From NCBI RefSeq assembly GCF_964355755.1, contig NC_092673.1, positions 4,154,001 to 4,218,000 on the forward strand: 64,000 nucleotides of DNA, in the 5' to 3' direction. The position numbers were made by a program, and so were the translations under genes. Position 1 is the first letter of the stretch. Every line of letters starts with the position of its first letter. The notes beneath the pieces were generated by a model that was not told where the DNA came from, made no database searches, and saw only the letters and a list, made by a program, of their open reading frames with translations. Shown here in pieces: positions 22,501-53,650 of the stretch. This stretch comes from Antedon mediterranea (lineage: Eukaryota; Animalia; Echinodermata).

Positions 22501-25500
22501 GTTTACCATATTTTAGGTTTTGACTTGTCATGATTTTCTAAAATAAGTAGTTTTTTGAAGAAGTTTATTTTAAATGTTATCGTTAAATTTTCTCTTAAAC
22601 CATATAGCAGAACTTGACCTTTATTGATATTTAAACCGAAATTTATTTTTACAATTACAATTGGGATAAGTAACAATAAATTCCGTAACAATAAAGCCTA
22701 CTGTAATCTCTTTTCAAATCAAAAGATTCTTATTAACATTCCTTGATAAACAAAAGCTGATTTATTTCCAATGACAATCAATCCCTTAAACCCAAAATGG
22801 GCAAAACCACTTAGTCACTAAAAAATCAAGCAAAAAAGTATTTTGTAAACACTATAATTTATGGACGCTTGGCCTAATATTCTGTTTATATTACGTTCTG
22901 ACATGTTGACCAATCATATTTGATTTACGTGGCTGCGGTGTACCTCAACAGGAACATTTAAGGAAATTCTGAAATGTAGATTTTGGAGACTGATTAGTAA
23001 TATTCATTTTTGTGTGATCTTTGCTGCTGCATGAATGTCATTGGTGAATTCAAACAGAGGTAAAAGTAAAATTTATTTCTTTAGCACTCTACTCTTAAAG
23101 TTATTAAAACGTACTTAAAAAATCATACTTAAATTATTGCATTTATGGACTATTCCATTTTGAATTGAGCATGTGATAACTATAATAGAAGGATGATTAA
23201 TATGATCAGTATTTTTTATGTTTTTTGAATAAGAAGATTTTTTTGTTCAATAATAAATTAGTAATGTAAACAAACTAATATGATTTAGGTCAATATTTAA
23301 GAAGCCATCCTACTTAAGTGCTCTTAAAAATGTCCCGTACTTAGATTGCATCAAGTTGTTAGAAGAAGGAAATACTTAGTATCCTATATTTCATAACAAA
23401 CACGGATATTGGGTCAAATCCTGCTTAGATTCACCATTTCATAAAGGTACAACTTAGTATTTAGTTAGTATTATTCCATCAGCAACGAATCAAGATCACT
23501 AATAAAAGAACGTATATAAAGAAGATTCACCTACAAAATGCCAGGGAAACAATATCTAGAGGTCAAAGAATGTTCTAAACAAAAGAAGAACCACACTGCT
23601 GAAAAGAAGCTTATCAGCATTAATAGACGTGAGACGGCATTGGAAAGGATGGAGTATGATAGAAGAAACAGCTTGACCAATCACAAAAGTATTGAGAACA
23701 AACTGACTAGCAGAAGTGAGGACAAACTGACTAGCAGAAGTGATTCCTTAATCAACATTGATTCTAATTTGATTGCTAGTGTGTTGAAAACAAAGTTTGG
23801 ATTTGTATTTGATGGACAAACTAAAGTATTAGAAAAACTTGCTGATGAAGTTGCGGTATTGGTTCAAAATCAGGTAGTGAAAGAGGCATCTGCCGCCAGA
23901 GATGACGAGATAACTGGACGTCTTGATGAAATTCAACAAAGTGTTGATAAGATTTCTCATTCGTTGATTCAGACAAAGAATTTCGCGATAAAAAATGGTT
24001 TAAGAATAGATGAAATAGAAGATAGTTTAGGTAAGACAATTTTTGGAAACCTATCAATCAGCATTAGAAAAAGCGAAAGAGAATTTATCAAAAGGCTGAT
24101 GTCCGGAATTTTTCAACAAAAGGTGGTTTGTTGATATAAAGTTTGCGGTACACCACGTGTAGTTTTGAAAAGAACTGTTGAGTTTCTCGACATTTCGATC
24201 AATATGCTTTGATCGAAAGTTGGTTTGTCATCTCTCTTTTTATCAAAGCTAAATTTCAACTTGTTTGTTCTTTCAGGAGTACAACTTGATAATAAGAATA
24301 AGCCAACACCACCAAGAAGATCCACTGTAAAGGTACTGTAGTTTTCAATGTACTTATTCCACTATCATTGTCCTCGCCATCTTGTTACTGTATTCTTCTT
24401 CAATGTCAGTATCTTCATCATCAAAATGAATTTATCTATTGTCACCACCTTTTTCATTCTCAACACCATTATCCTCTCCACAATGTCATCTTTGCCTTTA
24501 ACACAAAGAAAAACTTTACATTCTTCATCCCTCTGTATTCATCTGTCAAGTCCATAGCCAGTACAGTTGGTAAGGGGTCAACCTGACCGCTTTTTCACAG
24601 AGGCTTGAACAGAGATTGTTCCCTTATCTTGCGAAAACCAGACCGCTTTATTTCTTGTGGCTATATCACTATTATTTAGTAAACATTCTGTGAGTAATAA
24701 TCTTTTCTATTATTTATAACTATGCTGTTTTGTTCACTTTAAAGAGATCACTTAAAGGCCGCAAATCTGGTGCAATAAGGAAAGGTGGTCGCTCTCCAAT
24801 GGACTACTACACAATAGCAGACTATGACAATCATGTAGGAGATGGAATCAGCTTCAAGAAAGGCCAACATGTTGAGGTACGTATTTCACTACAGGTAGTG
24901 AATTATAATTAGTAGTTTGAAACTCCTAAATTCAAATGATTTATACACACTCTACACACAAAAATGAGTAATTATTAGGGTGTGTGGCACAGTGTGTTGG
25001 ACGTTGGACTATTGTGAGGTTGTGTGTTTAAATTCAACGCATGTCGCATTGCTTGTGTCCTTGGGGAAGGCACTTTACTTATATTTGCCTCTCTCCGCCC
25101 AGGTGTACAAATGGGTACGTTTACTTTGCACTGGTTAGTATCTGCATTATGTGATTACGTTTCCATTTGCGTTTGATCCAAAAATGACCAGGGTAATATG
25201 TAAAGCGTTAGAAGTTTCATAACATTAGGCCCTTTAATCAAGGATTTTATTATTATAATAATTATATGGTATTTATAATTACTGTATTCCATTTGCTGAC
25301 ATTATTTAACAGGATATGGTTTTTAGTGTCACAAAACGAGTAGGTTATAGTTCATTGGGATATTCATTTGTGGCTTGATATCCTGTTTAAAAGGAACTCA
25401 AAAGTTGTATGGTCTGCTCAGATAAACCAGACAACAATATTTCAAGTGTTAAAAATTAAATTAGCTAATCTTTTTGTGTTTATATATTTTTACTGGATGT

Positions 25501-29614: not shown

Positions 29615-31620
29615 GGATGCTAGTCAAGTCGCCCCATCGCAAAGTCGCCCCATACAAAGTCGCCCCTTACACAGTCGCCCCATCGCAAAGTCGCCCCAAA
29701 ACAAAGTCGCCCCGACACAGTCGCCCCATCGCAAAGTCGCCCCATCGCAAAGTCGCCCCAACGCAAAGTCGCCCCATCGCAAAGTCGCCCTAACACAAAG
29801 TCGCCCCAAAACGTTAAAAAAATAGTTTAAAAGTGCGTAAAATGTCGCAATGATACACAAAATAACACGGAACGTGTAGGCATAAAAGGGGAAGTCCCGC
29901 CATGTAGTCTCACAGGTCACATGATCATCCCCCATCATCATGAGAGGAAGCCCCCAACTAATCACTCCGCGCGCGGTCGCACTAACGTGCTAGCTCACCA
30001 CCGGAGGGAAACCCCCGTAATTACTCCGCCGTTGTCGCACTACCATACAACGCACCATCTGAAGATGGGGAAACCCCGCCGGAGTTTTACGATATCAGTC
30101 GCGTTCGAAATCGGTCGCGTTTAATTTTGGTCGCGATAAAATGATGTTATACGATCTAGATTATTTTTACTTTGGTCGATAAATATTTATTATTATCAGG
30201 TATATGATGAGAAAGATGTGTGCCTTCAAAAATGACAATTTGTAAACATAGTTTAAGATTATAGTATTATTCAGCATAATGTCATTTAACAGTACATAAT
30301 TATTTAAATGTGAAATATTTTATAGGGAACGTAGGCTACGTCTGTAACTTTTATTTTATATGCAACAAATTACGTAAAACAATTTATTTATAAACATTCA
30401 GTTTACTAATAGTATTACAATGAACATTGATTATAAGCCTGGAAAGGCAATCCCATCATTATATCCATTATAAAATTGCATCATATCACCACTATATGTC
30501 GTAAATGATGACGTGTGTGTATGTATTCGTCGTACGTCCGTGTACGTATTATTCCGTGCATCTTCACTGTCTTGTTTAATTTAAAATTAAATAAACACCC
30601 GATATGAGGATATTTATTAGGCATGAGATAATTAGAATGTTCTATAACCAAAAGGGTTGAAAAGAATTTCTTCAGTAAAATGATCATTCTGCTGTTGAAT
30701 ATAAAGCGACTCGCAATCTGAAACATTCTCTGAAACCAATCGGAGCTGCGCCTTCTGGTATCTGTTTCCTCACAGCTGCTACGACGTCTTTCTGCTGGCC
30801 GTCGGGGATTCCCCTTTTTAAAAAACACGCACACGATACGATGGTTTTCCATGGTCAAAATGTAGCGTACGATCATATCGGCGATGAAATCCTTTTTTTT
30901 TATTTCTTCATTTTGAAAAGTCATAATAAAATTAAATAACAACAGACACTTAACTTGTCAATAAATGCAAAGTGATCAATAAGTAGCCTATAACACTATT
31001 GTCTTACAACTACTATAAATCTATACGAAGGCCTACTACACATTTATATACTTATTATATTATCATAAAAAATGAGCTGGTAGGTTGAAGAAAGATTCGT
31101 AATTGTGGCTCTGGTAACTAATTTTAAAATCATATTAAATTAACATTTTCGAAACTATAAATCAGGGATAATCTTTTTAGAACTTTCAAACAAGGGACTG
31201 TTTTTTTAATGATTTCTAAAAAGCACATCACTCCATTAAAACCTGTAAAATAAAAATACAAATTATGTATATAATAGGATAAACATTATAATGTAGGCCT
31301 AGGCCTATACGACATTTAGCGCGACCAAAGTAACAACGCAATCGATATCAAACGCAACCGATATGATTAAAACAGCGTACTACTAGTAATAGCGGCGGCG
31401 CTTCATAGTCATACCGAAATAAAACCGTGGGCAACTTTGCGATAGGGCGACTTTGCGTTGGGGCGACTTTGCGATGGGGCGACTTTGCGATGGGGCGACT
31501 TTGTAATGGGGCGACTTTGCGATGGGGCGACTGTGCCGGGGCGACTTTGCGATGGGGCGACTTTGTATTGGGCGACTTTGTATGGGGCGACTTTGCGATG
31601 GGGCGACTTGACTGGATCCC
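29615..31620. mobile_element. Foldback-type DNA transposon (probably MULE/Mutator-derived, non-autonomous) with tandem-repeat TIRs
   Basis: Both ends are arrays of AAAGTCGCCCC(A) in inverted orientation. Termini are GGATGCTAGTCAAG / CTTGACTGGATCC. The flanking direct repeat is CTGTCATG (29607-29614, 31621-31628). A second inner inverted pair lies at about 30092-30143 / 31313-31362. Confidence 0.85.
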
Positions 31621-31907: not shown

Positions 31908-34900
31908 ATGGAAATTGAACATAGACTGAGAGATTCTATTTCGGCAGAACCGCTTCCTCCGACAGAATCTGCTGAGATACTAATTCTCCGTGCCAGGTCA
32001 GAAAATGGAAGTATTGACAGTTTAGCGAGTGATCAAAGGAGCTTACACATCATAGATGATTTCCCAGAAAAGAAACGAGCCGAAGGCGAACTAAATGAAC
32101 AAGTAGAAAGCCTTCTGTTGGACAAAGTTGATAATGGCGACAAACTTGCTACATTTCAACTCGCACAGTTCTATTTTGAACAGGTATTATATTGTATTGT
32201 GTATATATTTTTTCAGTTGGAAATATATTTATGTAACATACTACAGTATGAGTCACAAATGTATCAAAAGTTTTCCTCCCATTTTACAATGTGTTGTTGA
32301 CTTTAGCTTGATATAAAGTTTGCGGTAAACCGCATATATTAGTTCTGAAATCAATTGTTGAATTTCTCGATGTTTCGATCAATATGCTCGTCCTCAGTGT
32401 ACTGAAAACTTGATCAACATTTGATTTCGCCATGCAAACCTTCAATAAATATAAGAGTTTAGCTTGTTATTACAGCTATCCACACTCTCATTATTTCTCT
32501 AATTGCAACTTTCTTTTAAAGGAAAGGAACACCCTGGGCTAAATGTGCCACTGTGCTTATAGATAAATGTAATAAAAACATGATTACAATGGTTCAAGGT
32601 ACAATAGTAAGCAATTTAGTTAAAAAATAGACTTTTAAACGACAAAATATCGGAAATTGAACAGCGCCATTTTGACAGGTTAAGAGCAATTATGTGACGT
32701 CAGATTAGGTGGACGCATTCAAGCAAATCCAAGCGCCCATCGTCTTAGTACAGTATTTCAATATGGAAGTGCGGGATATAACCATAAATAAAATCAATTA
32801 AATAGCCTAACATACCTAATATTTTCGGAATATGGCTTGGAGTTTTTATAATTCAAAAAATTTGGAACCAGAATATACAGAAAGAGAGTTAGTTTTGCGT
32901 CGTGCTGATGAGGAAAAAAGAAGAGAAGAAGAACATTCTCGAGCATAACAAGCCGTCGAAGAATGGTGTACTTTCGGCCAGTGTATCTGTACTGTATGCC
33001 TTACTAGGCCTAGAACTCGTGTTGAACGAAAATAAAGTAGACACTGCATCGTCAACCAACAGCCTCCGTTTGGAAGGTTGGCCAGTTAATTCCCCTACCA
33101 AATCCCGTTTGAAACAGCTAGGCAATAAAAGTAACAATAGATTAACAATAGCTGAAAGATTTACGAATTGGCTTGCAGAAGAAAAGATCGATCGAAGGTT
33201 TGTTTACCAAGCCAGCGCATGCTCATACCGTGTCATCGCCGTCCTGCATGACCGCATGTCGCGTTATTAGCCAATCATATTAGCGGATTCGCTTAGCCAA
33301 TAGAAGCGCTGAATGCAACCGCGAATCTTAAAATTTTCGTCGGCCGTATCTGACGTCACAAACAGGCTGCCATGAGCACAAGATGGCGATTTTCAAATGT
33401 CTTGAAAACAGCTTTAAAATCCTGTTTACTAGAAAACTACAAATCCGATTTAAACATAAATTGTGCTGAATATTAAGTTGGTAGGGTTACTTTTATAATA
33501 GTTAGGTAAGATATTAGGGTGTTCCTTTCCTTTAACATCTTTTCTGCACATGAGTTGACCATTAACAAGCCACAGTTCAGATGATCCATCTCGTCGTAGG
33601 TTTAGTGTTCAAATTATATTGCGGTGCGTTTACATCCTTGCGTTGCGTCCAAGTGGAAACCAAGCTTTATTCTTTAATACAGAAATATGTTGTCCCATTG
33701 ATAACATATTTGGAATTGTTAATGGATCCAGAGCTATAACTCAAAGTAACTCGGAATCACCATCAATATGATGATATTTTAATTGTTTATATTTTTAGGA
33801 TGACTACAAACGTTCGTTGATCTACTATGAGAAAATAAAGGACACAGATCCGCAAGCACAGTTTCAACTGGGTGTTATGTATCATGATGGACTAGGAACA
33901 ACTGCAGATCATGTGAGTATGAAGAAGCTACTGGTGAGGGTGTAAACAGCACATCATCTGACATAATCTTGATATGTTGTCCAATCATAAAAGTTGTTTG
34001 AGTATGGCTGATGTATCATTATTGACTTTTTTGACTTGACAAAATGATAACAAATTGGTTGAAAAATGTAAAAAAAAAACAAGAATTGGGTTAACCACAC
34101 AATTCTTTCTTGAGAATGAAGAGGGCGTGTTTCGACCTCTTTAACCAAGCATCCTCACTGTTACCCTTGCATCAAGTTTAACCTTGGTTCCCACTCGCAA
34201 CGCAACGCAAGGACCTAACCCAACGTAAGCACAAGCAATGAAATATTCGAATAGTGGCTTGTCATTGTTCAACATGCATAAATCCTTGCATTTCTTTTTT
34301 TTTTTATCACAAATTGGTTTGTTCAAGTCATGCATAATTTTTACTGTATATGTAATAATCTCAAGTTTTATTTTGATTAATTGATGCAAACAGAAAAAAG
34401 GGCATGAGTTCATGCTTAAAGTAGCAAACAACTTACATTCAAGCAACCAACACTTAATACATGTTGCGCAGTACAACGTTGGCAGGTCGCATTTTGAGGG
34501 GTGCGGTGTGAAGCAGTCTGACACAGAAGCTGAGAGGTGGTGGTTACTGGCAGCAAATGATGGACATCCTAAGGCTAGCATTAAAGCACAGACAGCTCTT
34601 GGCATGTACTACTGCCGTGAGGAGTCTCTAGATTATAAAAAGGTAACATGCAGTAGCAGTAAAGCTTGGTTCCCACTAGGATACAATGCAAGGACGTAAC
34701 GCAACAAAAGCTTGTTGACCAATGACAAGCGACAGTTTGAATAATCAATCGCTTGTGATTGGTAAACTTACTTACGTTGCGTTACATCCTTGTGTTGCAT
34801 CTCTAGTGGGAACCAAGCATTAAGGGATGAGAAAACAAGAATTACTACAAATAAAATATTTCGATTTGATATCATAGAGCAAGCAGTACAGACAAAAACA

Positions 34901-37032
34901 AAGATTTAATACCAGAGATTTACAAACTTGTTTTTGTTTTTTTCGTAGGCTTTTTTCTGGCATTCCGAAGCAACTGGAAATGGTAGTCTGGAATCTCAAG
35001 GTAAATATCCTTAATTGATTATCCGCACTTGGCTGATAACCCCTTGTTATTGTCAGGATCGTTGAAGTGACGAGTTCAAATCGAGTTTAGTTAGTATTAT
35101 ATTCTGGATTTGAGGAAAGTTTACTTTGATTTTAATTTAAAATAATACACATATTTTGTTTTTTATTTTTGAATTTTGAATTTGTTTTTTATATTGTTTG
35201 GAAGATTATACTATGCTTCAGTTTTCAATTTTGTTCCATTAAATTGTTATTTCTTGTGCACTGAGAACGACAATTATTAAACATTGTTATGTTGCTGGTG
35301 ATGTTTTAAATCTATCACTGAGCCATCATTTGAACTCATTGTTCTGCCACTGTGTGGGTATACGGTTGTAGCATAGAGATATTATCTCTATGGTTGTAGC
35401 AATGTAAATTTTGATATGTCTATATTCATGTAGGAGCCCTAGGTGTGATGTATGAGTTAGGCCTAGGATGTCACAAGAACCATGATTCTGCATTTGAATG
35501 TTTGAAGGAAGCATCTGAACGAGGCAACGTGTATGCCATGGCAAACCTAACAGCGCATTATTATGCTAAGAAGCTATACACAAAGGCAGCCGAGACCGCT
35601 GCTAGGTAAGTACTTCTACAGCACACACTCCCTTAGTGATGCTTAAAGGTGAAATAAGGAGGCAAAGGGTATTTACTCGTATAGGCTACCTCCTCTCATA
35701 GATGTGCAAGTCATATTTGTTTAACACTGCCTGCTATGATTAGCACCGTGGATTGAGTCAATAAACAGAAAAGAGCACCCAACATGGTTAATATTGATAC
35801 ACCATCTTTGTCTCTTACTGTTTCTAAACTGTTGCCACCACCCTTATTACAGAGTTGCTCAACTTAAAGACATTGAAGACATTTCAAGAAAGACGGATTG
35901 CTTACCAGTATTCATAGGTAAAGGCATTGCTATGGGCAGTTTCTACTATGCTAGGTGTCTTCATCTTGGACATGGTGTGCAAAAGGACAAAGACCTAGCA
36001 CAGACTTACTACAGCCAGGTATGTACTGTCATTTTAAATAAATGGAGAATTGTGTCCGGGAGGTATAACATAACAGCTCACTAATTTAATTATAATTCAC
36101 TAAAATAATTAACAAATTAGTTTTACTATGTTTTCCATTATGTTTTGGAATTGCAATCCTTCAGATTTTAACTCGGTGTTCCTTTAAAATTTATGAAGGG
36201 AGCCCTCTATTATTCTACTTTTACAAATCTTTAAATATGTAACCAGCATTTAAAGATGTATTGTCCCCCAAAAACATGAAAAATGAAGATTAATTAAATC
36301 AGACTTTGAATATGTTATTTTGTAGTTTTAATAAAGTTAATCACTTCCGTTAAAAAAAAATGAAAAAAAATAATGTTTTCACCTTTAAATTGACAAAATA
36401 AATGGTTAAATTCAACCAAAAACCCACTAGCTGGCAGCCAATTTGGCCATTTTTTGCTTTAAATTACAGTTTTTTCAGGTAAATACATTTTTTTTTTCAA
36501 ACCAATTTTTGGTCAAAGTGGGTAATTATTATGTTACATTAAAATGGAATATTCAACAACAATTTAGTTAAGAAATATTTTTTTCAGGGGGACAATACAT
36601 CTTTAAGCTGTATTTTAGTTTTATTCCAAAATAATAAATAGCTATCTTCTTTGTTTTCTACTCAATACTATCTCCACCTCTATTTACCAGCCTTATGCCT
36701 CTTATGTTTCTTTTCTTTTATTCCTGTCAACTCAGGCAGCGCTTGCCTGATATATCTATCTATCTTTGTCCAAGTACCTTCACTTGCACTGATGAAGGGC
36801 TAGTATTGCCCGAAAGATCTGCCAACTTTTCTGGCTGTTTTACTTTATCGTTTTGATTTTGCTTTTCGCTTTTTTTTTCATTGAGTATTTTTCCTTTGAA
36901 TTTATTTAAATTTTAATATATAGTGAGAACATTGTATAGTATTGTGTTTTATTTTATCCTATCCAGGCATTCAAATTCGATGGGAATACCACACAGATGC
37001 TACAGAACATGGTGACCCATGGAAAAATATAG
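31908..37032 (+). CDS. LRP2BP: LRP2-binding protein (Sel1-like repeats), 7 coding exons, about 364 aa
   Basis: Exons 31908-32183, 33799-33912, 34394-34642, 34949-35000, 35434-35605, 35853-36018, 36967-37032, in continuous phase. Motifs QFQLGVMYHDGLG, AERWWLLAANDGHPKASIKAQ, AFFWHSEATGNGSLESQGALG, ERGNVYA and TDCLPVFIGKGIAMGSFYYARCL match LRP2BP. Confidence 0.93.
32520..33531. mobile_element. Kolobok-like non-autonomous DNA transposon in LRP2BP intron 1
   Basis: TIR AGGAAAGGAACACCCT at both ends with TTAA duplication (32516-32519, 33532-33535). An internal decayed frame reads LEPEYTEREL...*QAVEEWCTFGQC. Confidence 0.8.
36254..36602. mobile_element. MITE family C (TIR AGATGTATTGTCCCC, TTAA flanks; Kolobok-like)
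   Basis: TTAA-AGATGTATTGTCCCC...GGGGACAATACATCT-TTAA. Related copies lie at about 28771-29057, 41888-42130 and 49758-50074. Confidence 0.8.
36783..36826 (+). ncRNA. Minimal hammerhead-ribozyme-like motif (Penelope retroelement type)
   Basis: CTGATGA-a-GGGC(TAGTATT)GCCC-GAAA-GATC-TG, preceded by a pyrimidine-rich tract and a hairpin. The cleavage triplet and stem I are atypical. Confidence 0.5.
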
Positions 37033-40840: not shown

Positions 40841-41064
40841 ATGTAATCATTTCGAGAGAGAGGGATTTTCCGTTATTGCTTTTAAGGTAAACATTATCGG
40901 TTGATTTTAGTATAAAAATGAGCGTGGTTTTACAAACTTCATTCATAACTTCATCGACGAGCATTGACTTACTTATTGTACTTCGAAGAGCAGAAGATAC
41001 CAGCGAACATCATACGTACAAGAAATTATTTACATTTACAAGAAATAACTATACTCAATATAAG
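40841..41064 (+). promoter_or_regulatory. Putative promoter and non-coding first exon of secreted gene A
   Basis: kB consensus GGGATTTTCC 40862-40871, TATAAAA 40911-40917, Inr-like TTCATTC at about 40939, and donor AAG|GTAACT at 41064/41065 joining the acceptor at 41538/41539 five nt before the ATG. Confidence 0.6.
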
Positions 41065-41543: not shown

Positions 41544-43317
41544 ATGGCTCTTTTCAATATGACACACTGCATCATCAGTCTGCTGGGTGCATGCTTGTTA
41601 GTGGGTTCAATGCCTGTGTCCCCGACCACTGATGCTCCAATCCAGCTAAACAACGTCGATGACGCTAAAACGGCTGCCGAGAGATGGGAAAGAAATATTT
41701 ACGATTTCTATACAAGTTATGTAAGTCAATAATTTAATGTTTACTAACTAAATCTTAAATCGTAACTAGCCTATGTGCAAGATTGTATAATACAAAAGAC
41801 AAATGTAAAATTTAAACCATAGAAAAAAGAGTGAACTTTAATTTTAAAGATGGATGTACTCCTACAAAAGATTTTAAAAAAAACATTAAAGATATTTTGT
41901 CCCCTAAAAAATTTATATTTTGTCACCCTAAAAAATATATATTTTTAAAAATGCCAATTTTTAATGTCACATAATAGTTATTCACTTTGACCAAAAACTG
42001 GATCGAACAAAAAATGATTTAATGTAATTTAAAGCAAATAAATATTTAAATTGTCTGACGGACAGTGGTTTTTTGGTTAAAATTAACCGTTTTTTTTGTC
42101 TTTTTATAAGTGAAATCATTATTTTGTTTAATTTAACATTGTGATTTGCCAACAGATAAACAATCATACCGCCCTCTCTGCAACCTCTATCCAAAGTAAT
42201 AACATCTCCAAGCGTGTCGATGACTGTATCCTTCAATACAGGACAACCGCTCAGGTAAGATATACAATGTTTTTACATCTTTGCTCACCTTAGAATTATA
42301 CCGCTTTCACAATAAAGGCAAAACTCGGAAACACGCTCAGGTGTTTTGGTGTGAAAGGGGCCCAAGGAGTTTTGCACACTAAACTGCAAGGAACCCACGT
42401 TCATTGTAATTGTGTCTCATAATCGAATACGTTCTCGTTTGGCCCGGTTGCTCTCACTACATTTTAGAAAATAGCATATATATTGATTGTTTCCAATTCA
42501 TTGAGAATAATTTGCTTGTGTTTGTTTTTTAACAGAGTAATTTGGAAACACGTCTGGTAACATTGGTCAAATACTCGGTTAACATCACAACCCTGATCTA
42601 CATTGATGCTTACACAAGAACCACACTGTCCAATCTTGACAAAACAATGGAAAAGTTTGTAAGTTTTTATCACTAATTCTTCTTACCCTCATCTAATATT
42701 CTCATATAATTCCGTAACTTTCCTAATGAATATATACGATTACGAGTTTGTAAGGCTCCATAAGTAACGTTTCTTAGTAATATAATAACTATGTAACTAA
42801 CATTTTATTATTTATTTTAATTTTCCCAGCTTAAAGAAGACAACGTTAGTGTCTGTAACGTCATTGATGATGAACTTGCACCGCCGCTGTGTTTCGAGTC
42901 CTTTGAGGTACGTATTCTTATAAATAACTAAATATGAATAACTCCAGTGCCGTATAACGGCTATGTTACGGCTATGAGCGCTCACTGGCTAAACCCAGGG
43001 GCCCCTGAGTTTATGGTGCCTCAGACCTTATGGGTCACCTGAGAAGTGCCCAGAGGGCCGGGAAAACAGACATTAAAATATGTCGAAAAGGCTAAAAATG
43101 ACCGAGGCCTCAGGTATCTGCGTTACGCCACTTCTCGGACTCCTATCCATCTATAGCCCACAATGACAATTAAGGCCTATGTTTAATTTTATTGCAGACT
43201 GCCGTAGCTGAAGTAAAACAAAAATCGGAGCCCCTTGCTGTTGCATACTCTCTGCATATGCTACGAAGTGCCGCCGATGCCGTGTACAAACTAACCAGCT
43301 CATCTCAACTTTGTTAA
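41544..43317 (+). CDS. Novel secreted protein A (198 aa), candidate helical cytokine; 5 coding exons, all introns phase 0
   Basis: Exons 41544-41720 (177 nt; MALFNMTHCIISLLGACLLVGS signal + MPVSPTTDAPIQLNNVDDAKTAAERWERNIYDFYTSY), 42156-42254 (99), 42536-42658 (123), 42830-42907 (78), 43198-43317 (120, ends ...YSLHMLRSAADAVYKLTSSSQLC*). Splice sites are strong GT-AG and there are no stops. Gene structure is well supported; function is inferred. Confidence 0.85.
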
Positions 43318-44564: not shown

Positions 44565-47473
44565 TAACCATAACATGCGCAGACCACATTATGTGATTCT
44601 GCGTATGTTACATTATTATATAGTAACCAGTTATGTTAAACACAAGTTTTTTTAAATGCAATTATTATGCGATAAAATTGCTCTATATGATCATATATTG
44701 CTTTATCATCATCTTATAGTACCATAGACACTTGTTATCACGACAAATAAAAGTGTCGAAAATTGGCCATTTTTGAAAAAATTCCTGTACTATAGTAAAG
44801 GGATTTTTTCGAAAAATGGCCAAAATATCAAGTTTTTTAAATTAAATTATTATGCGATAAAATTGCTCTATATGATCATATATTGGTTTATTATCATCTT
44901 ATAGTACCATTAGACATCTGTTATGTAACCACTTTTGACATAAATGGTTACTATAGCATAATAAACATGCGCAGAGTCGAATAATGGATTCTGCGCATGT
45001 CGATTGTGCTATAGTAACCATTTATGTCAAATATGGTTATGATAGCACAATTGATGCGCAGAACCCATTATTCGTCTCTGCGCATGTTTATTATGCAATA
45101 GTAACCATTTATGTCAAAAAATAAGGGGGTCGGAAATCGGCCATTTTTCAAAAGTTTCCCTGTACTATAGTACAGGGATTTGTTCAAAAAAATGGCAAAT
45201 TTTCGACCTATTTATTTTTCGATAAAACTGGTTACTATAGCACAATTAACATGCGCAGAACCCATTAGTCGACACTGCGCATGTTTATTATGCTATAGTA
45301 ACCATTTATGTCAAAAGTAAATGGTTATGATAGCACAATTGACATGCGCAGAACCCATTATTCGACTCTGCGCATGTTTATTATGCAATAGTAACCATTT
45401 ATGTCAAAAAATAAAAGGGTCGAAAATCGGCCATTTTTCAAAAATTTTCCTGTACTGTAGTACAGGGATTTTTCCAAAAAAATGGCCAATTTTCGACCTT
45501 TTTATTTTTCGATAAAACTGGTTACTATAGCACAATTAACATGCGCAGAACCCATTAGTCGACTCTGCGCATGTTTATTATGCTATAGTAACCATTTATG
45601 TCAAAAGTAACCACTTTAGACATAAATGGTTACTATAGCATAATAAACATGCGCAGAGTCGAATAATGGGTTCTGCGCATGTTAATTGTGCTATAGTAAC
45701 CATTTATGTCAAATATGGTTATGATAGCACAATTGACATGCGCAGAACCCATTAGTCGACTCTGCGCATGTTTATTATGCTATAGTAACCATTTATGTCA
45801 AAAGTAAATGGTTATGATAGCACAATTGACATGCGCAGAACCCATTATTCGACTCTGCGCATGTTTATTATGCAATAGTAACCATTTATGTCAAAAAATA
45901 AAAGGGTCGAAAATCGGCCATTTTTCAAAAATTTTCCTGTACTATAGTACAGGGATTTTTCCAAAAAAATGGCCAATTTTCGACCTTTTTATTTTTCGAT
46001 AAAACTGGTTACTATAGCACAATTAACATGCGCAGAACCCATTAGTCGACTCTGCGCATGTTTATTATGCTATAGTAACCATTTATGTCAAAAGTAACCA
46101 CTTTAGACATAAATGGTTACTATAGCATAATAAACATGCGCAGAGTCGAATAATAGGTTCTGCGCATGTTAATTGTGCTATAGTAACCATTTATATCAAA
46201 TATGGTTATGATAGCACAATTGACATGCGCAGAACCCATTATTGGACTCTGCGCATGTTTATTATGCAATAGTAACCGTTTATGTCAAAAAATAAGAGGG
46301 TCGGAAATCGGCCATTTTATGAAAATTTTCCTGTACTATAGTACAGGGATTTTTCAAAAAAATGGCCAATTTTCGACCTTTTTATTTTTCGATAAAACTG
46401 GTTACTATAGCACAATTGACATGCGCAGAACCCATTATTCGACTCTGCGCATGTTTATTATGCTATAGTAACCATTTATGTCAAAAGTGGTTCAAATATG
46501 GTTATGATAGCACAATTAACATGCGCAGAACCCATTATTCGACTCTGCGCATGTTTATTATGCTATAGTAACCATTTATGTCAAAAGTGGTTCAAATATG
46601 GTTATGATAGCACAATTAACATGCGCAGAACCCATTATTCGTCTCTGCGGATGTTTATTATGCAATAGTAACCATTTATGTCAAAAGTGGTTCAAATATG
46701 GTTATGATAGCACAATTGACATGCGCAGAACCCATTATTGGACTCTGCGCATGTTTATTATGCAATAGTAACCGTTTATGTCAAAAAATAAGAGGGTCGG
46801 AAATCGGCCATTTTTCGAAAATTTTTCTGTACTATAGTACAGGGATTTGTTAAAAAAAATGGCAAATTTTCGACCTTTTTATTTTTCGATAAAACTGGTT
46901 ACTATAGCTCAATTAACATGCGCAGAACCCATTAGTCGACTCTGCGCATGTTTATTATGGTATAGTAACCATTTATGTCAAAAGTAAATGGTTATGATAG
47001 CACAATTGACATGCGCAGAACCCATTATTCGACTCTGCGCATGTTTATTATGCAATAGTAACCATTTATGTCAAAAAATAAAAGGGTCGAAAATCGGCCA
47101 TTTTTCAAAAATTTTCCTGTACTATAGTACAGGGATTTTTTCAAAAAAATGGCCAATTTTCGACCTTTTTATTTTTCGATAAAACTGGTTACTATAGCAC
47201 AATTAACATGCCAGAACCCATTAGTCGACTCTGCGCATGTTTATTATGCTATAGTAACCATTTATGTCAAAAGTAACCACTTTAGACATAAATGGTTACT
47301 ATAGCATAATAAACATGCGCAGAGTTGAATAATGGGTTCTGCGCATGTCAATTGTGCTATAGTAACCATTTATGTCAAATATGGTTATGATAGCACAATT
47401 GACATGCTCTGAACCCATTATTCGTCTCTGCGCATGTTTATTATGCAATAGTAACCATTTATGTCAAAAAATA
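44565..47473. repeat. Complex higher-order satellite built from two hairpin/palindromic monomers in both orientations
   Basis: Monomer X is about 90 bp (TGGTTA..ATAGCACAATT.ACATGCGCAGAACCCATTATTCGACTCTGCGCATG..TAGTAACCA). Monomer Y is about 105 bp and palindromic, centred on GTACTATAGTAC. The higher-order period is 487 bp between 45321 and 45808. Confidence 0.92.
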
Positions 47474-48951: not shown

Positions 48952-50389
48952 CACATCTGTTTAAATGAAGTATTAAAGTATTGAAAGATGTCAACAACAA
49001 TACACTCTTTATTGAATAAACCGAATCAGCGACGGTAAATGAAATATTTAAAAAAACATTAAAATATAACATACATACAAACGTGCATTTACTGACAATG
49101 TCGTCATGTGTAAATAAATTAATTTAAAACAAAAAATATGCTTTATTACCGAAAAATCCAATTGTAAAACGAATCTAAAAATACATTTAAACTTCGGTGT
49201 CTTTAGGAAAAATATATAGTCATAAAAAATCAAATTGTCAAAATAAATCGATATAGGCCCATTGCTACTAAATAATTATATAGTATAAGTATAATCTATA
49301 GTTATTGCACTATTACTTTCGACTACGGGTTATAATCAGGTAAATAATAAACCACCCACACTTCAATATGAAATAAAGAGAACGTTTAAATTAAACAAAA
49401 AAGAAAGTTGTTCTCAGGACATAAAATGATAATTGCTTAAGTCCAAATTGCAAAAACAAATCAATTAATAAAACCATCATCATAGAACTGTTACATAATA
49501 TAAATGTATTTTGTTTGTTACCATTTCCCATTGTAATTATTTTTAAAGAAATTAGGCCTATATATTATTTCAAAATATTTGGTGTATATAAACACAAACT
49601 GAACAGAGCAAACAACAAACATTGTTTACGAGTGAATGCGACTCATCATCAATCATTTGAATAATTATTTATTAATTAATTTATAACAGGTAGGTAACTG
49701 TTTACTATTTTCTGCATAATAAATAGTATACTGTATAAAATAGTCTTAATTTAAATTTAAAGATATATTGTCCCCCTAAAAAAATATTTTGTTACAAATT
49801 TGTTGTAGAATATGTAATTTGAATTTCACATAATAGTTATTCACTTTGATAAAAAATCGGATCAAAAATGATTTCCCAGAAAAAAATAAAATAAATAGTC
49901 AAATTGGTTGAATTTAACTGTTTATTTTGTCATTTTATAAGTGAAAACATTATTTTTTTCATTTTTTTTTCCTATGGAATGTGATCAACTTTGTTAAAAC
50001 TACAAAAATTGCCTATTCAAGTCTGATTTTATTAATCTTCATTTTTCATGTTTTTCGGAGAAAATACATCTTTAAGTTTGGTTTCCTTGGACGCGACGCA
50101 AGTACTTTAAAGCACCGCAATTTGACCAATCACAAGCGATGAAGCATCCGAACTGTCGATTATGATAGGTCAACTCACTTGCGTTGCGCGTCTACCCTCG
50201 TTGCGTCGCTTCCAAGTGGGAACCCCGCTTTAAGAAAAGCAATGCAATATCTATTATGGTCACTATGGAGGCAAATCGACTGACGATGTGTCTATGAAAC
50301 ACTGGAAAAAAGAATGGATGTTTTTTTTTTGAATTAGTGGCTTAGATGGCTTAGTAAACATATTATTATTGAGAGGGTTACACCCTACT

Positions 50390-50494
50390 GAAAGAAAACG
50401 AAATAAATATAAAATAAACAAAGTGATGTAATCATAATTTTAAACGATTTTCATTGGCTGTGCGTTCATTGACCCTGCCAGTTTATTATAAATA
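50390..50494 (+). promoter_or_regulatory. Putative promoter of secreted gene B
   Basis: IRF-like GAAAGAAAACGAAA 50390-50403, ATGTAATCAT 50426-50435, inverted CCAAT at about 50453, and TATAAATA 50487-50494, about 120 nt before the ATG. Confidence 0.5.
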
Positions 50495-50606: not shown

Positions 50607-53001
50607 ATGTTTTTACAGCTGGTATGTGTGCTAGTATTTGCATTGTCTGCATCTTCAAAGCCAATAAGTTCGTGTAGTCTCAGTGAAGGAGACTATTGGT
50701 TGACAAAACTCGATCAACTACACCAGTCATTAAGCAGTGAAGTAAGTAACTAATTAGGCCTGTGTGTGTAAGTTTAGTTACTGACATTATATATAAATAA
50801 TAATACTGTCAAATTATTGATACAATGCTCATATTCGGAACATGATCTCATAATCGCGTCGAGCATAGCTCATCGGCGAAAGTTCCGTATGTTTCAGTTG
50901 TATTAAAAATGTCTGGCGGGATTCGAACATGCGACCTCTCGCTTTACAGGGCGAGTATCATACCGTTAGACCACAGGAGAGCCATATACGGCATTATTAC
51001 AGATCTTCAACCACCATATACATTCTCTTATACAACAAACGACAGGTTTAATTTGTCTCTGTTGTGGTAGATAATGGCGGACACGTGAAATTCCTGCACT
51101 TTTAGGATTTAGACTAAGAATAGATAAGTCAAATAGCGATTTTAATTCGGGTTAAAACAAAATGTCTCGACATGAAACAATACAATTATATATTATATAT
51201 CTTTATATGTGCGATCTCGAATTTATGTCGTCGTGACGGGTAGGCACGCGCGCTCGCCTGCAACAAGCATCGTTGTCGATAAAAAAAACATTGTTTCTTA
51301 AATATTTTTGATTTCATTACAGAGGAACTGTGCTCCTCCTCCATGTGAGTTTGACTTGGATTCTTTTAATCAAACACCACAGGTAAGCATTTTGGCTGAT
51401 AATTTTAATTTACCAACATATAATAAATAAAAAACACTATTCTCCGAATATGTGGTGCATTCTATTTTAAGTTTTAAAAAAATGATCTCTACTATAAAAT
51501 AAAACTGTTAAGCATACGACTGTATATAATATTTTAAAATAATTGGGGTTTTTTCATCAACAGGAATCGGCGTACAGACAAACGGTTAACTTCGTTAAAA
51601 ACACAAACGACGTATTTAGCAGTTGGTTCAATCAATCGCAAACTTCTCGAAGTATAGGCAACTCATTGCAATCACTGGAAAGTCAAGTAAGAATTATGTC
51701 ATTCAGTTTCTTGTTAATATAATAGCATTAAGCCAAAATGTTTTCCTCTATCTCCTCCTAAGCTGCAAGTCCGATACTAGCGCCGTTCGAGTTGGGGCAC
51801 CTTTTAATTCCCTTTGTCCATTAAGCCGTAAAACGGAAAATGTGTACCAAAAATGTGTTATTTAGACCAATTACTTTGAAACTGCCGAATACTGCGGTAA
51901 TTCTCGGCTATTTTCATACGTCACAATTAAGTCACTCATGTCATTAGCAATATCGAGACAGCAGCACATGTGACATGTGTACTATATTACTGTATACTAT
52001 CTGTTTGATTTCCGAACATTAACATCATTATAAGATGGTGCCCGTCCATTGGTACGGCTTAGTTGAAATTTAAATGTTTTTTTTTCTTTCTGAAGCTACG
52101 GAATGCGCCTTCAAATTGTATTCAAACGGGAACGACGGCCACAGATATACAAGATAGTTTTACGGTATGTTTCACACATCTGAAAACTTTTTTTTATAGC
52201 ATTAAAGCTTGGTTCCCACTAGGACGTAACGCAAGGACGTAAACGCAACGCAAGCGTTTTAACCAATGACAAGCGAAGTTATAGACAGTTAGCAATCACA
52301 AGCGAATAAGTCATCGCTTGTGATTGGTCAATTCACTTGCGTTGCGTTACGTCCTTGTGTTGCGTCGCTAGTGGGAACCACGTTTTAAGCTTGGTTCCCA
52401 CTAGAACGTAACGCAAGGACGTAAACGCAACGCATGCGTTTTAACCAATGACAAGCGAAGTTATAGACAGTTGGCAATCACAAGCGAATAAGTCATCGCT
52501 TGTGATTGGTCAATTCACTTGCGTTGCGTTACGTCCTTGTGTTGCGTCGCTAGTGGGAACTAGAACGTAACGCAAGGACGTAAACGCAACGCATGCGTTT
52601 TAACCAATGACAAACGAAGTTATAGACAGTTAGCAATCACAAGAGAATAAGCCATCGCTTGTGATTGGTCAATTCACTTGCGTTGCGTTACGTCCTTGTG
52701 TTGCATCGCTAGTGGGAACCACGCTCTTGAAGTACCATCTCACGTACACAGAGATAAGCATTGTGCAAATTTCTGCAACAATTTGCGAAGTTATCATGGT
52801 CATTTTGTAGGCATTATGCGTGTAAACTGTAAAGTCAAGTTATCATTGATTGAAATTCATGTATTTATCAAAAATAATAATCCTTTTAATAAATGTTGTT
52901 TGTTACAGTGTATACAAAACATGACGGTAACTGAACTAGGCTGCATCATGAGAACACAACTTCGAGTGATAAAACGATTGGTTTTCAATGTTATACCGTA
53001 A
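50607..53001 (+). CDS. Novel secreted protein B (159 aa), candidate helical cytokine; 5 coding exons, all introns phase 0
   Basis: Exons 50607-50741 (135 nt; MFLQLVCVLVFALSASS signal + KPISSCSLSEGDYWLTKLDQLHQSLSSE), 51323-51382 (60; RNCAPPPCEFDLDSFNQTPQ), 51564-51686 (123), 52096-52164 (69; LRNAPSNCIQTGTTATDIQDSFT), 52909-53001 (93; CIQNMTVTELGCIMRTQLRVIKRLVFNVIP*). Splice sites are GT-AG and there are six mature Cys. Function is inferred. Confidence 0.85.
50911..50980 (-). mobile_element. tRNA-derived SINE head or tRNA pseudogene in gene B intron 1
   Basis: Minus strand TGGTCTAACGG (A-box), CTCGC..GCGAG stem and GTTCGAATCCCG (B-box); the acceptor stem is poor. Confidence 0.6.
52206..52724. 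mobile_element. Three head-to-tail copies of MITE family B in gene B intron 4
   Basis: Near-identical palindromic units of about 165-180 bp start at about 52206, 52388 and 52560; the third lacks the outer left TIR. Confidence 0.9.
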
Positions 53002-53078
53002 GAATACGTCATACCGTAAGCATACGTCATACCGTACAAATACGTCATAGCGTACGTCATATCGTAAGAATACGTCAC
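52993..53078. repeat. 18-bp tandem repeat (ATACCGTAAGAATACGTC) overlapping the gene B stop codon
   Basis: About 5 units, one of them truncated. Confidence 0.85.
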
Positions 53079-53650
53079 AATGTTTAAATGATACGCTCAG
53101 GGAAATATATTTATATTTTACTGAAAACGATATTGAATTTTTTAACTACAACCCGGTCGCCTACGAGTACACTCTATATTTTATCAAATTTAATAAGTAA
53201 TTAAGTATGAAAATAGAATTTAACAAACGTCAATATATCGAAATATTTTAAATAATTTATTGATCTAAAAATAGAAAATATTTAGTTTCTGTGAAACTAA
53301 AACAGTAGTAAACACAATGTGTACCATTATTGACGATGCTGGTTGAGAAATTTGTATTTATATTATTGTAAAATGTCAGAATATTTCTGAATACATGTAG
53401 CATATGTTGCAACTGATATGTATATTCTTTTATTCATATTGTATATTGTCAGTATATCTAAACGTGCAATGGTAAATTAAATATATAAGTAATTTTACTT
53501 TTTAATATTGTGGTCGTTTATAATGATCTACTTATTATTTGGATTGAACACATACAGTACATATATGGACATGATGATGTCTTATCACTACCATATTTGG
53601 GCATATCACACTGTTTTTGTCAAACTAGTTTGATAGTGTAGACAGGGCTA

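Follow-up and report, generated by a model that had tools for sequence, protein, structure and literature searches.

The window analysed here is a 64,000-nt stretch of the genome of the crinoid Antedon mediterranea (NCBI RefSeq assembly GCF_964355755.1, contig NC_092673.1, positions 4,154,001 to 4,218,000, forward strand). It carries two short five-exon genes on the same strand, designated gene A and gene B, with gene A located 7.3 kb upstream of gene B and with a SEL1-like gene on one side of the pair and a GDA1/CD39 gene on the other (Table 1). The main subject is gene B, which the initial annotation had likened to IL-10. On balance, we find it probable that gene B encodes a secreted helical cytokine of class II (the interferon/IL-10 superfamily) that is conserved in a second crinoid and is not an ortholog of IL-10.

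Table 1. Features of the window, with positions counted from its first nucleotide
Feature	Position	Strand	Description
Gene B	50607..53001	+	five coding exons; 159 amino acids
Gene B exon 1	50607..50741	+	45 amino acids; leader of hydrophobic residues, likely a signal peptide; Cys23; helix A (predicted)
Gene B exon 2	51323..51382	+	20 amino acids; predicted AB loop, Cys48 and Cys53
Gene B exon 3	51564..51686	+	41 amino acids; two predicted amphipathic helices (C, D; helical moment); no Cys
Gene B exon 4	52096..52164	+	23 amino acids; Cys114, short predicted helix E
Gene B exon 5	52909..53001	+	30 amino acids and TAA; two cysteines (130 and 141) and a predicted, strongly amphipathic helix F
High-copy short palindromic repeat in gene B intron 4	52205..52719	.	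nested or tandem copies; resembles a miniature inverted-repeat transposable element (MITE), label inferred
Tentative gene B promoter	50394..50493	+	IRF-element-like 50394, shared 10-mer 50426, TATA-like 50487
Gene A	41544..43317	+	five coding exons: 41544-41720, 42156-42254, 42536-42658, 42830-42907, 43198-43317
Tentative gene A promoter	40841..40917	+	shared 10-mer 40841, kappa-B-like 40862, TATA-like 40911
SEL1-repeat gene	31908-37030	+	seven exons, phases 0,0,0,1,2,0; three introns spliced in run X1
GDA1/CD39 nucleoside phosphatase gene	~55820 to >63800	-	Pfam E 3e-23; converges on gene B
Multi-exon SH3 gene	~4100-26620	+	encodes several SH3 domains; Pfam confirmed the last exon

Gene structure and conservation of gene B

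The five coding exons of gene B measure 135, 60, 123, 69, and 93 nt, exactly as first modelled, and are separated by four GT..AG introns, every one in phase 0. Cysteines are encoded at positions 7, 23, 48, 53, 114, 130, and 141; the six that fall in the mature protein and the three N-glycosylation sequons were likewise present as initially described. The N-terminus was found to be the sole strongly hydrophobic stretch of the product (Kyte-Doolittle 11-mer score of 2.92 vs at most 1.34 elsewhere), and judged by this hydropathy the leader is presumably cleaved and the protein secreted.

A search with exon 3 against 1.84 billion proteins returned two matches at E ≤ 0.001. One of these (E 4.3e-4) was XP_033097432.1, a partial, uncharacterized protein of 133 amino acids from Anneissia japonica, which is identical to gene B exons 1 to 4 at 66 of 129 residues (24/45 in exon 1 and 11/23 in exon 4) and retains all four cysteines of these exons, including both of exon 2. 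Thus, gene B is a genuine and constrained gene. Both sequons of the exon 1 to 4 stretch are not retained in the Anneissia protein. The second match (P0002, from a plant, with 19 repeated stretches) was rejected as a repeat artefact. The gene B product was absent from the protein collection searched, which is a weak negative, with exon 3 found in none of four candidates; furthermore, a metagenome scan for relatives gave none among 197 stretches, and tblastn within the window detected no additional copy of gene A or gene B.

The Anneissia record stops at the end of exon 4, such that exon 5 is without ortholog support and is the least certain exon of gene B. Its acceptor ranks 6 of 174 AGs and is within the spread shown by the 13 training acceptors, its reading frame has the top helical moment of 44 candidates, and its inclusion brings the mature cysteines to an even number. 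Cys130 is the first codon of exon 5, with Cys141 positioned three turns further on.

Contigs of run X4 were found to differ from the window in gene B by one amino-acid change in exon 1 (50667) and one synonymous change in exon 5 (52935), and no indel was listed within the gene B exons. Among the joints listed for run X1, no spliced joint of gene A or gene B was found, and the only pieces detected were of low depth, unspliced, and uninformative on expression (depth 3-7, including 52936-53156 across exon 5, vs 2.6-4.5 for intergenic sequence). This run contains spliced RNA, as evidenced by the SEL1-like gene next to the pair, for which it shows three joints of the GT..AG type. The repeat in intron 4 of gene B has tandem units of 182 and 159 nt, and contigs of runs X1, X2, and X4 cover it at very high depth.

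Predicted helices and remote homology searches

The mature gene B product was examined for amphipathic helicity and had a mean helical moment of 0.337, compared with 0.221 ± 0.029 for shuffled sequences, a value reached by none of 2,000 shuffles; the same (0 of 2,000) held for the Anneissia ortholog, while gene A gave a p of 0.004. In a model of the ortholog, which is of low confidence, helices were placed at residues 26-46 (exon 1) and at 71-92 and 94-120 (exon 3), with exon 2 forming a long loop devoid of helix and exon 4 a short helix; the second exon 3 helix extends into exon 4 beyond the conserved cysteine. The structure models scored a predicted local distance difference test (pLDDT) of 41-44, which is low confidence for the up-up-down-down core of helices A, C, D, and F. 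If exon 5 contributes the final helix, the helices and loops are predicted to follow one another as they do in class II cytokines (PMC4034011).

Profile searches of Pfam at E ≤ 10 detected no family for any of the five gene B exons, and the IL-10-like motifs that had been noted by eye in exons 4 and 5 were not detectable. No family was retrieved when all 10 exons of genes A and B, or gene A as a whole, were used, and the Anneissia ortholog retrieved four weak, unrelated families, with no IL10, IL22, Interferon, IL28A, or IFN-gamma among them. Sequence searches of the PDB gave no cytokine match, and an FNIP-like repeat match and phosphatase matches were set aside as chance. Helical cytokines are highly divergent and difficult to recognise by sequence alone (PMC2654155), and for this reason a missing hidden Markov model (HMM) match is expected.

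A language-model (Atlas) search was performed with residues 20-133 of the ortholog as query and was limited to named clusters, with 10 of 30 matches listed. All matches listed were four-helix cytokine clusters, with IFN-gamma at 0.87 (183/256 features) followed by IL10/IL22 at 0.84, a mixed EPO/IFN-gamma/IL10 cluster and IL34 (0.83 each), IL10, two IL2 clusters, and IL7 (0.82 each), and IL-26 and IL10/22/28 (0.81 each); all are scores below 0.9, which the tool itself rates as leads only. The result gains weight because a cytokine target had been named beforehand from the gene structure.

Exon and cysteine layout

Interferon-upsilon was sought with four screening criteria: a gene of five coding exons in phases 0-0-0-0, a leader encoded by exon 1, a length below 300 amino acids, and helicity (PMC8863823). 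Gene B has all of these features, with helicity predicted and exons 1 to 4 backed by the ortholog. Lamprey and lancelet interferons were found by a like filter (bioRxiv 10.64898/2026.05.30.728932), in which 132 lamprey genes of phases 0-0-0-0 fell to 14 with a signal peptide and small size and then to a single helical one; the layout becomes selective once joined with signal peptide, small size, and helicity. The five-exon phase-0 layout is common to the IL-10 family, IFNL1, IL3, and IL21 (PMC12652433, PMC2654155) and is also found in fish type I interferons (PMC4929537) and interferon-upsilon (PMC8863823). Since IL3 and IL21 have five all-phase-0 exons too, the layout cannot single out IL-10.

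Cysteine placement discriminates better than exon layout. The disulfide of IL-10 runs from helix C to the DE loop, whereas in interferons of types I and III the AB loop is bonded to the start of helix F, which prevents intertwined dimers, and almost all class II members have a bond between the N-terminus and the end of helix D (PMC4034011). In the group 2 interferons of fish, cysteines of exon 1 are bonded to those of exon 3, and cysteines of exon 2 to those of exon 5 (PMC12232857). Exon 3, with its predicted helix C, was found to have no cysteine in either gene B or the Anneissia ortholog, and because of this IL-10 proper is not supported. Cys23 and Cys114 are conserved and suitably positioned for the bond from the N-terminus to helix D, and Cys48/53 (exon 2) and Cys130 (exon 5) stand at the positions of type I/III interferon cysteines, with pairing predicted in both cases. 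The 5-residue spacing in the loop and the 11-residue spacing in the helix each amount to about 16.5 Å by idealised geometry. As read from the sequence, the gene B layout appears to fit type I/III interferons and not IL-10, and Cys23-Cys114 together with two bonds from the AB loop to helix F would be expected to yield a monomer. Overall, the parallel to the IL-10 family first drawn for gene B gains support in its broad form, that of a class II-type helical cytokine (screening criteria and Atlas), and is not supported for IL-10 itself, given the cysteine layout; gene B is predicted to be more like type I/III interferons, as a disulfide-locked monomer.

Proposed mode of action and alternative explanations

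We propose that the leader of gene B would be cleaved and the protein secreted. Helix A would come from exon 1, the AB loop from exon 2, helices C and D from exon 3, a short helix E from exon 4, and helix F from exon 5. One disulfide would join Cys23, near the N-terminus, to Cys114, at the end of helix D. Two more, formed by Cys48 and Cys53 with the partners Cys130 and Cys141, would tie the AB loop to helix F, and bonds of the latter kind would prevent a swapped dimer of the IL-10 type. By analogy with known class II ligands (PMC4034011), the protein may engage two class II receptor chains of the fibronectin-III type via helices A, D, and F, and, as in other systems, infection may induce the gene and JAK-STAT signalling may follow immune stimulation.

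Gene B does not match this picture in every respect. Cysteine patterns alone are reported to classify poorly (PMC12232857); the helix D cysteine of gene B sits in exon 4; the CAWE motif that type I group 2 interferons have near the C-terminus (PMC4929537) is absent from exon 5; and the N-terminal CXXXXX[W/L] motif of interferon-upsilon (PMC8863823) is absent, both crinoids having C-x7-W spacing. The exon layout alone is not rare, as the phases of the neighbouring SEL1-repeat gene illustrate (Table 1). To these are added the Pfam and PDB results and the standing of the Atlas matches as leads; in the Atlas control, one in three shuffled proteins attains 0.8 or fills a single clan (a calibration that does not cover partial queries or filters), and class II is not cleanly separated from class I. 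A class I four-helix cytokine, whether short-chain (IL-3/IL-21/IL-2/IL-7-like) or of a lineage outside both vertebrate classes and acting through gp130/domeless-type receptors, is distinctly unlikely: IL3 and IL21 do share the five-exon phase-0 layout (PMC2654155), and IL2, IL7, IL34, and the mixed EPO cluster stand at 0.82-0.83 among the Atlas matches listed, yet the top two and 6 of the 10 rows listed carry class II families, and the cysteine layout agrees with documented class II bonds (PMC4034011).

The same gaps in homology would suit a crinoid-specific secreted helical protein, such as a hormone, defence, or matrix protein, that is unrelated to cytokines and acquired its layout by chance or convergence. 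This explanation accommodates the Pfam and PDB searches without a cytokine match, an Atlas result at the level of a lead, the local frequency of phase 0, and the 14 secreted, small 0-0-0-0 lamprey genes that remained before the helicity step (10.64898/2026.05.30.728932); we regard it as rather unlikely, however, in that layout, exon-to-helix mapping, cysteine placement, and a blind match to the predicted clan concur. It is highly improbable that gene B is a true ortholog of IL-10 and that its product forms intertwined homodimers. Exons 2 and 5 equal the human IL10 sizes given in the initial annotation (60 and 93 nt, for which literature searches found no confirmation), while exon 3 is 30 nt shorter than the human exon 3 given there; at least two exact matches among five exons have a P of about 0.005 under a crude uniform null that is uncorrected for the many comparable cytokines. 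The IL10/IL22 cluster is also second among the Atlas matches listed. Against this ortholog stand the missing helix C-DE loop cysteine of exon 3, the lack of a Pfam IL10 match, and the likely bond from the AB loop to helix F, which would block a swapped dimer (PMC4034011).

Gene A as a candidate tandem relative

The five exons of gene A (177, 99, 123, 78, and 120 nt, all phase 0) encode 198 amino acids with a hydrophobic leader and four mature cysteines, and exon 3 measures 123 nt in both genes. Its first exon is 100% identical to XP_071949046.1 (Antedon mediterranea), and the model equals the last 198 amino acids of this record; the NCBI annotation joins the exons identically. The NCBI model has 11 extra N-terminal residues, apparently derived from an intron of the 5′ untranslated region (UTR; possible donor 41065, acceptor 41538). 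Genes A and B have no significant sequence likeness to each other, and searches for gene A relatives recovered gene A itself alone among 8 and 124 candidates. A language-model search with gene A (whole, unfiltered) retrieved unnamed arthropod clusters and DUF725, so it is by its architecture that gene A is considered a candidate tandem relative of gene B. By analogy, the pair may recall the clusters of class II genes in vertebrates (PMC2654155). The placement of cysteines in gene A, in exon 2 and as the final residue, loosely resembles an IL-22 bond (PMC4034011).

Comparison with known systems and significance

Gene B shares with fish group 2 type I and type III (IFN-lambda) interferons five coding exons, phase-0 introns, a leader, a length of the order of 160-200 amino acids, and cysteines encoded by exons 1 and 2 and by the beginning of exon 5. 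It differs from them in its lack of a detectable sequence match and of CAWE, in an extra exon 2/exon 5 cysteine pair, and in having the predicted partner of the N-terminal cysteine in exon 4 instead of exon 3. With the IL-10 family (IL-10, 19, 20, 22, 24, and 26), it has in common five exons, four phase-0 introns, and clustered genes (PMC12652433, PMC2654155), in addition to the exon sizes and Atlas rank given above; gene B is set apart by the lack of a helix C cysteine and by the likely bond from the AB loop to helix F, which is foreign to this family (PMC4034011). Interferon-gamma, though the best Atlas cluster among the matches listed (0.87), has four exons in teleosts (PMC12232857) and no mature cysteine (PMC4034011), compared with five exons and six cysteines in gene B. 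Lancelet and lamprey interferon homologs occur in small clusters, and genes A and B pass the filter used for them, with helicity predicted; those homologs were assayed for the induction of interferon-stimulated genes, whereas gene B belongs to an echinoderm.

A 2026 preprint (10.64898/2026.05.30.728932) describes homologs of interferons from lamprey, hagfish, and lancelet, found none in any other invertebrate, and puts the origin of the interferon/IL-10 family in lancelets; its structural screen also took in two sea urchins and a tunicate. The words 'crinoid' and 'echinoderm' do not occur in the main text of this preprint, and the genome list in its Dataset S2 may bear on whether crinoids were included. 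In the titles and abstract openings of the literature searched, a scope that most subscription journals fall outside, no crinoid or echinoderm class II cytokine was described. If gene B is of class II, it is a new member in a lineage with none reported in that literature. A crinoid member matters because the family is currently traced to lancelets; if true, the origin of the family would move beyond chordates to the deuterostome ancestor. The ortholog has no entry beyond that of a partial and uncharacterized protein, which may be why annotation-based screens missed gene B. More tentatively, and as a proposal that falls somewhat short of probable, genes A and B would form a crinoid tandem class II pair, with gene B of interferon type and carrying an exon 2-exon 5 disulfide; such a pair would make the ligand family older than the chordate/ambulacrarian split, with the family lost or missed in sea urchins. 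A crinoid class II cytokine would also provide two named genes that are open to cloning and direct testing.

Promoter candidates and neighbouring genes

Regions 5′ of both genes were compared with the kappa-B, IRF, and TATA consensus patterns. At each gene, a shared 10-mer was positioned about 60-70 nt ahead of a TATA-like word; the window contains five copies of it, and among control pairs 2% have a 10-mer in common at a comparable offset. The IRF-type pattern was not enriched in the window (4 found vs 4.9 expected), and of the 11 kappa-B patterns in the window, 8 were clustered at 29889-30814. The ATTTA counts of 6 and 4, compared with 2.5 expected, were weak. The sites assigned to the gene B promoter may, alternatively, fall within an intron of the 5′ UTR, and a second possible promoter with a non-coding exon was noted near 49586-49690. 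None of these promoter and UTR signals was used as evidence.

The SEL1-repeat gene is presumably LRP2BP-like, as judged by eye, and we take the GDA1/CD39 gene to be ENTPD4/7-like. The SH3 gene has what looks by eye like a PX-like N-terminus and is presumably of the p47phox/NOXO1/TKS type. An intron of this SH3 gene includes an open frame of 204 codons (23520-24134, + strand) that is coiled-coil-looking and perhaps a transposon remnant. The interval between genes A and B harbours a complex tandem repeat array of about 2.5 kb (44945-47469) with units of 93-487 nt.
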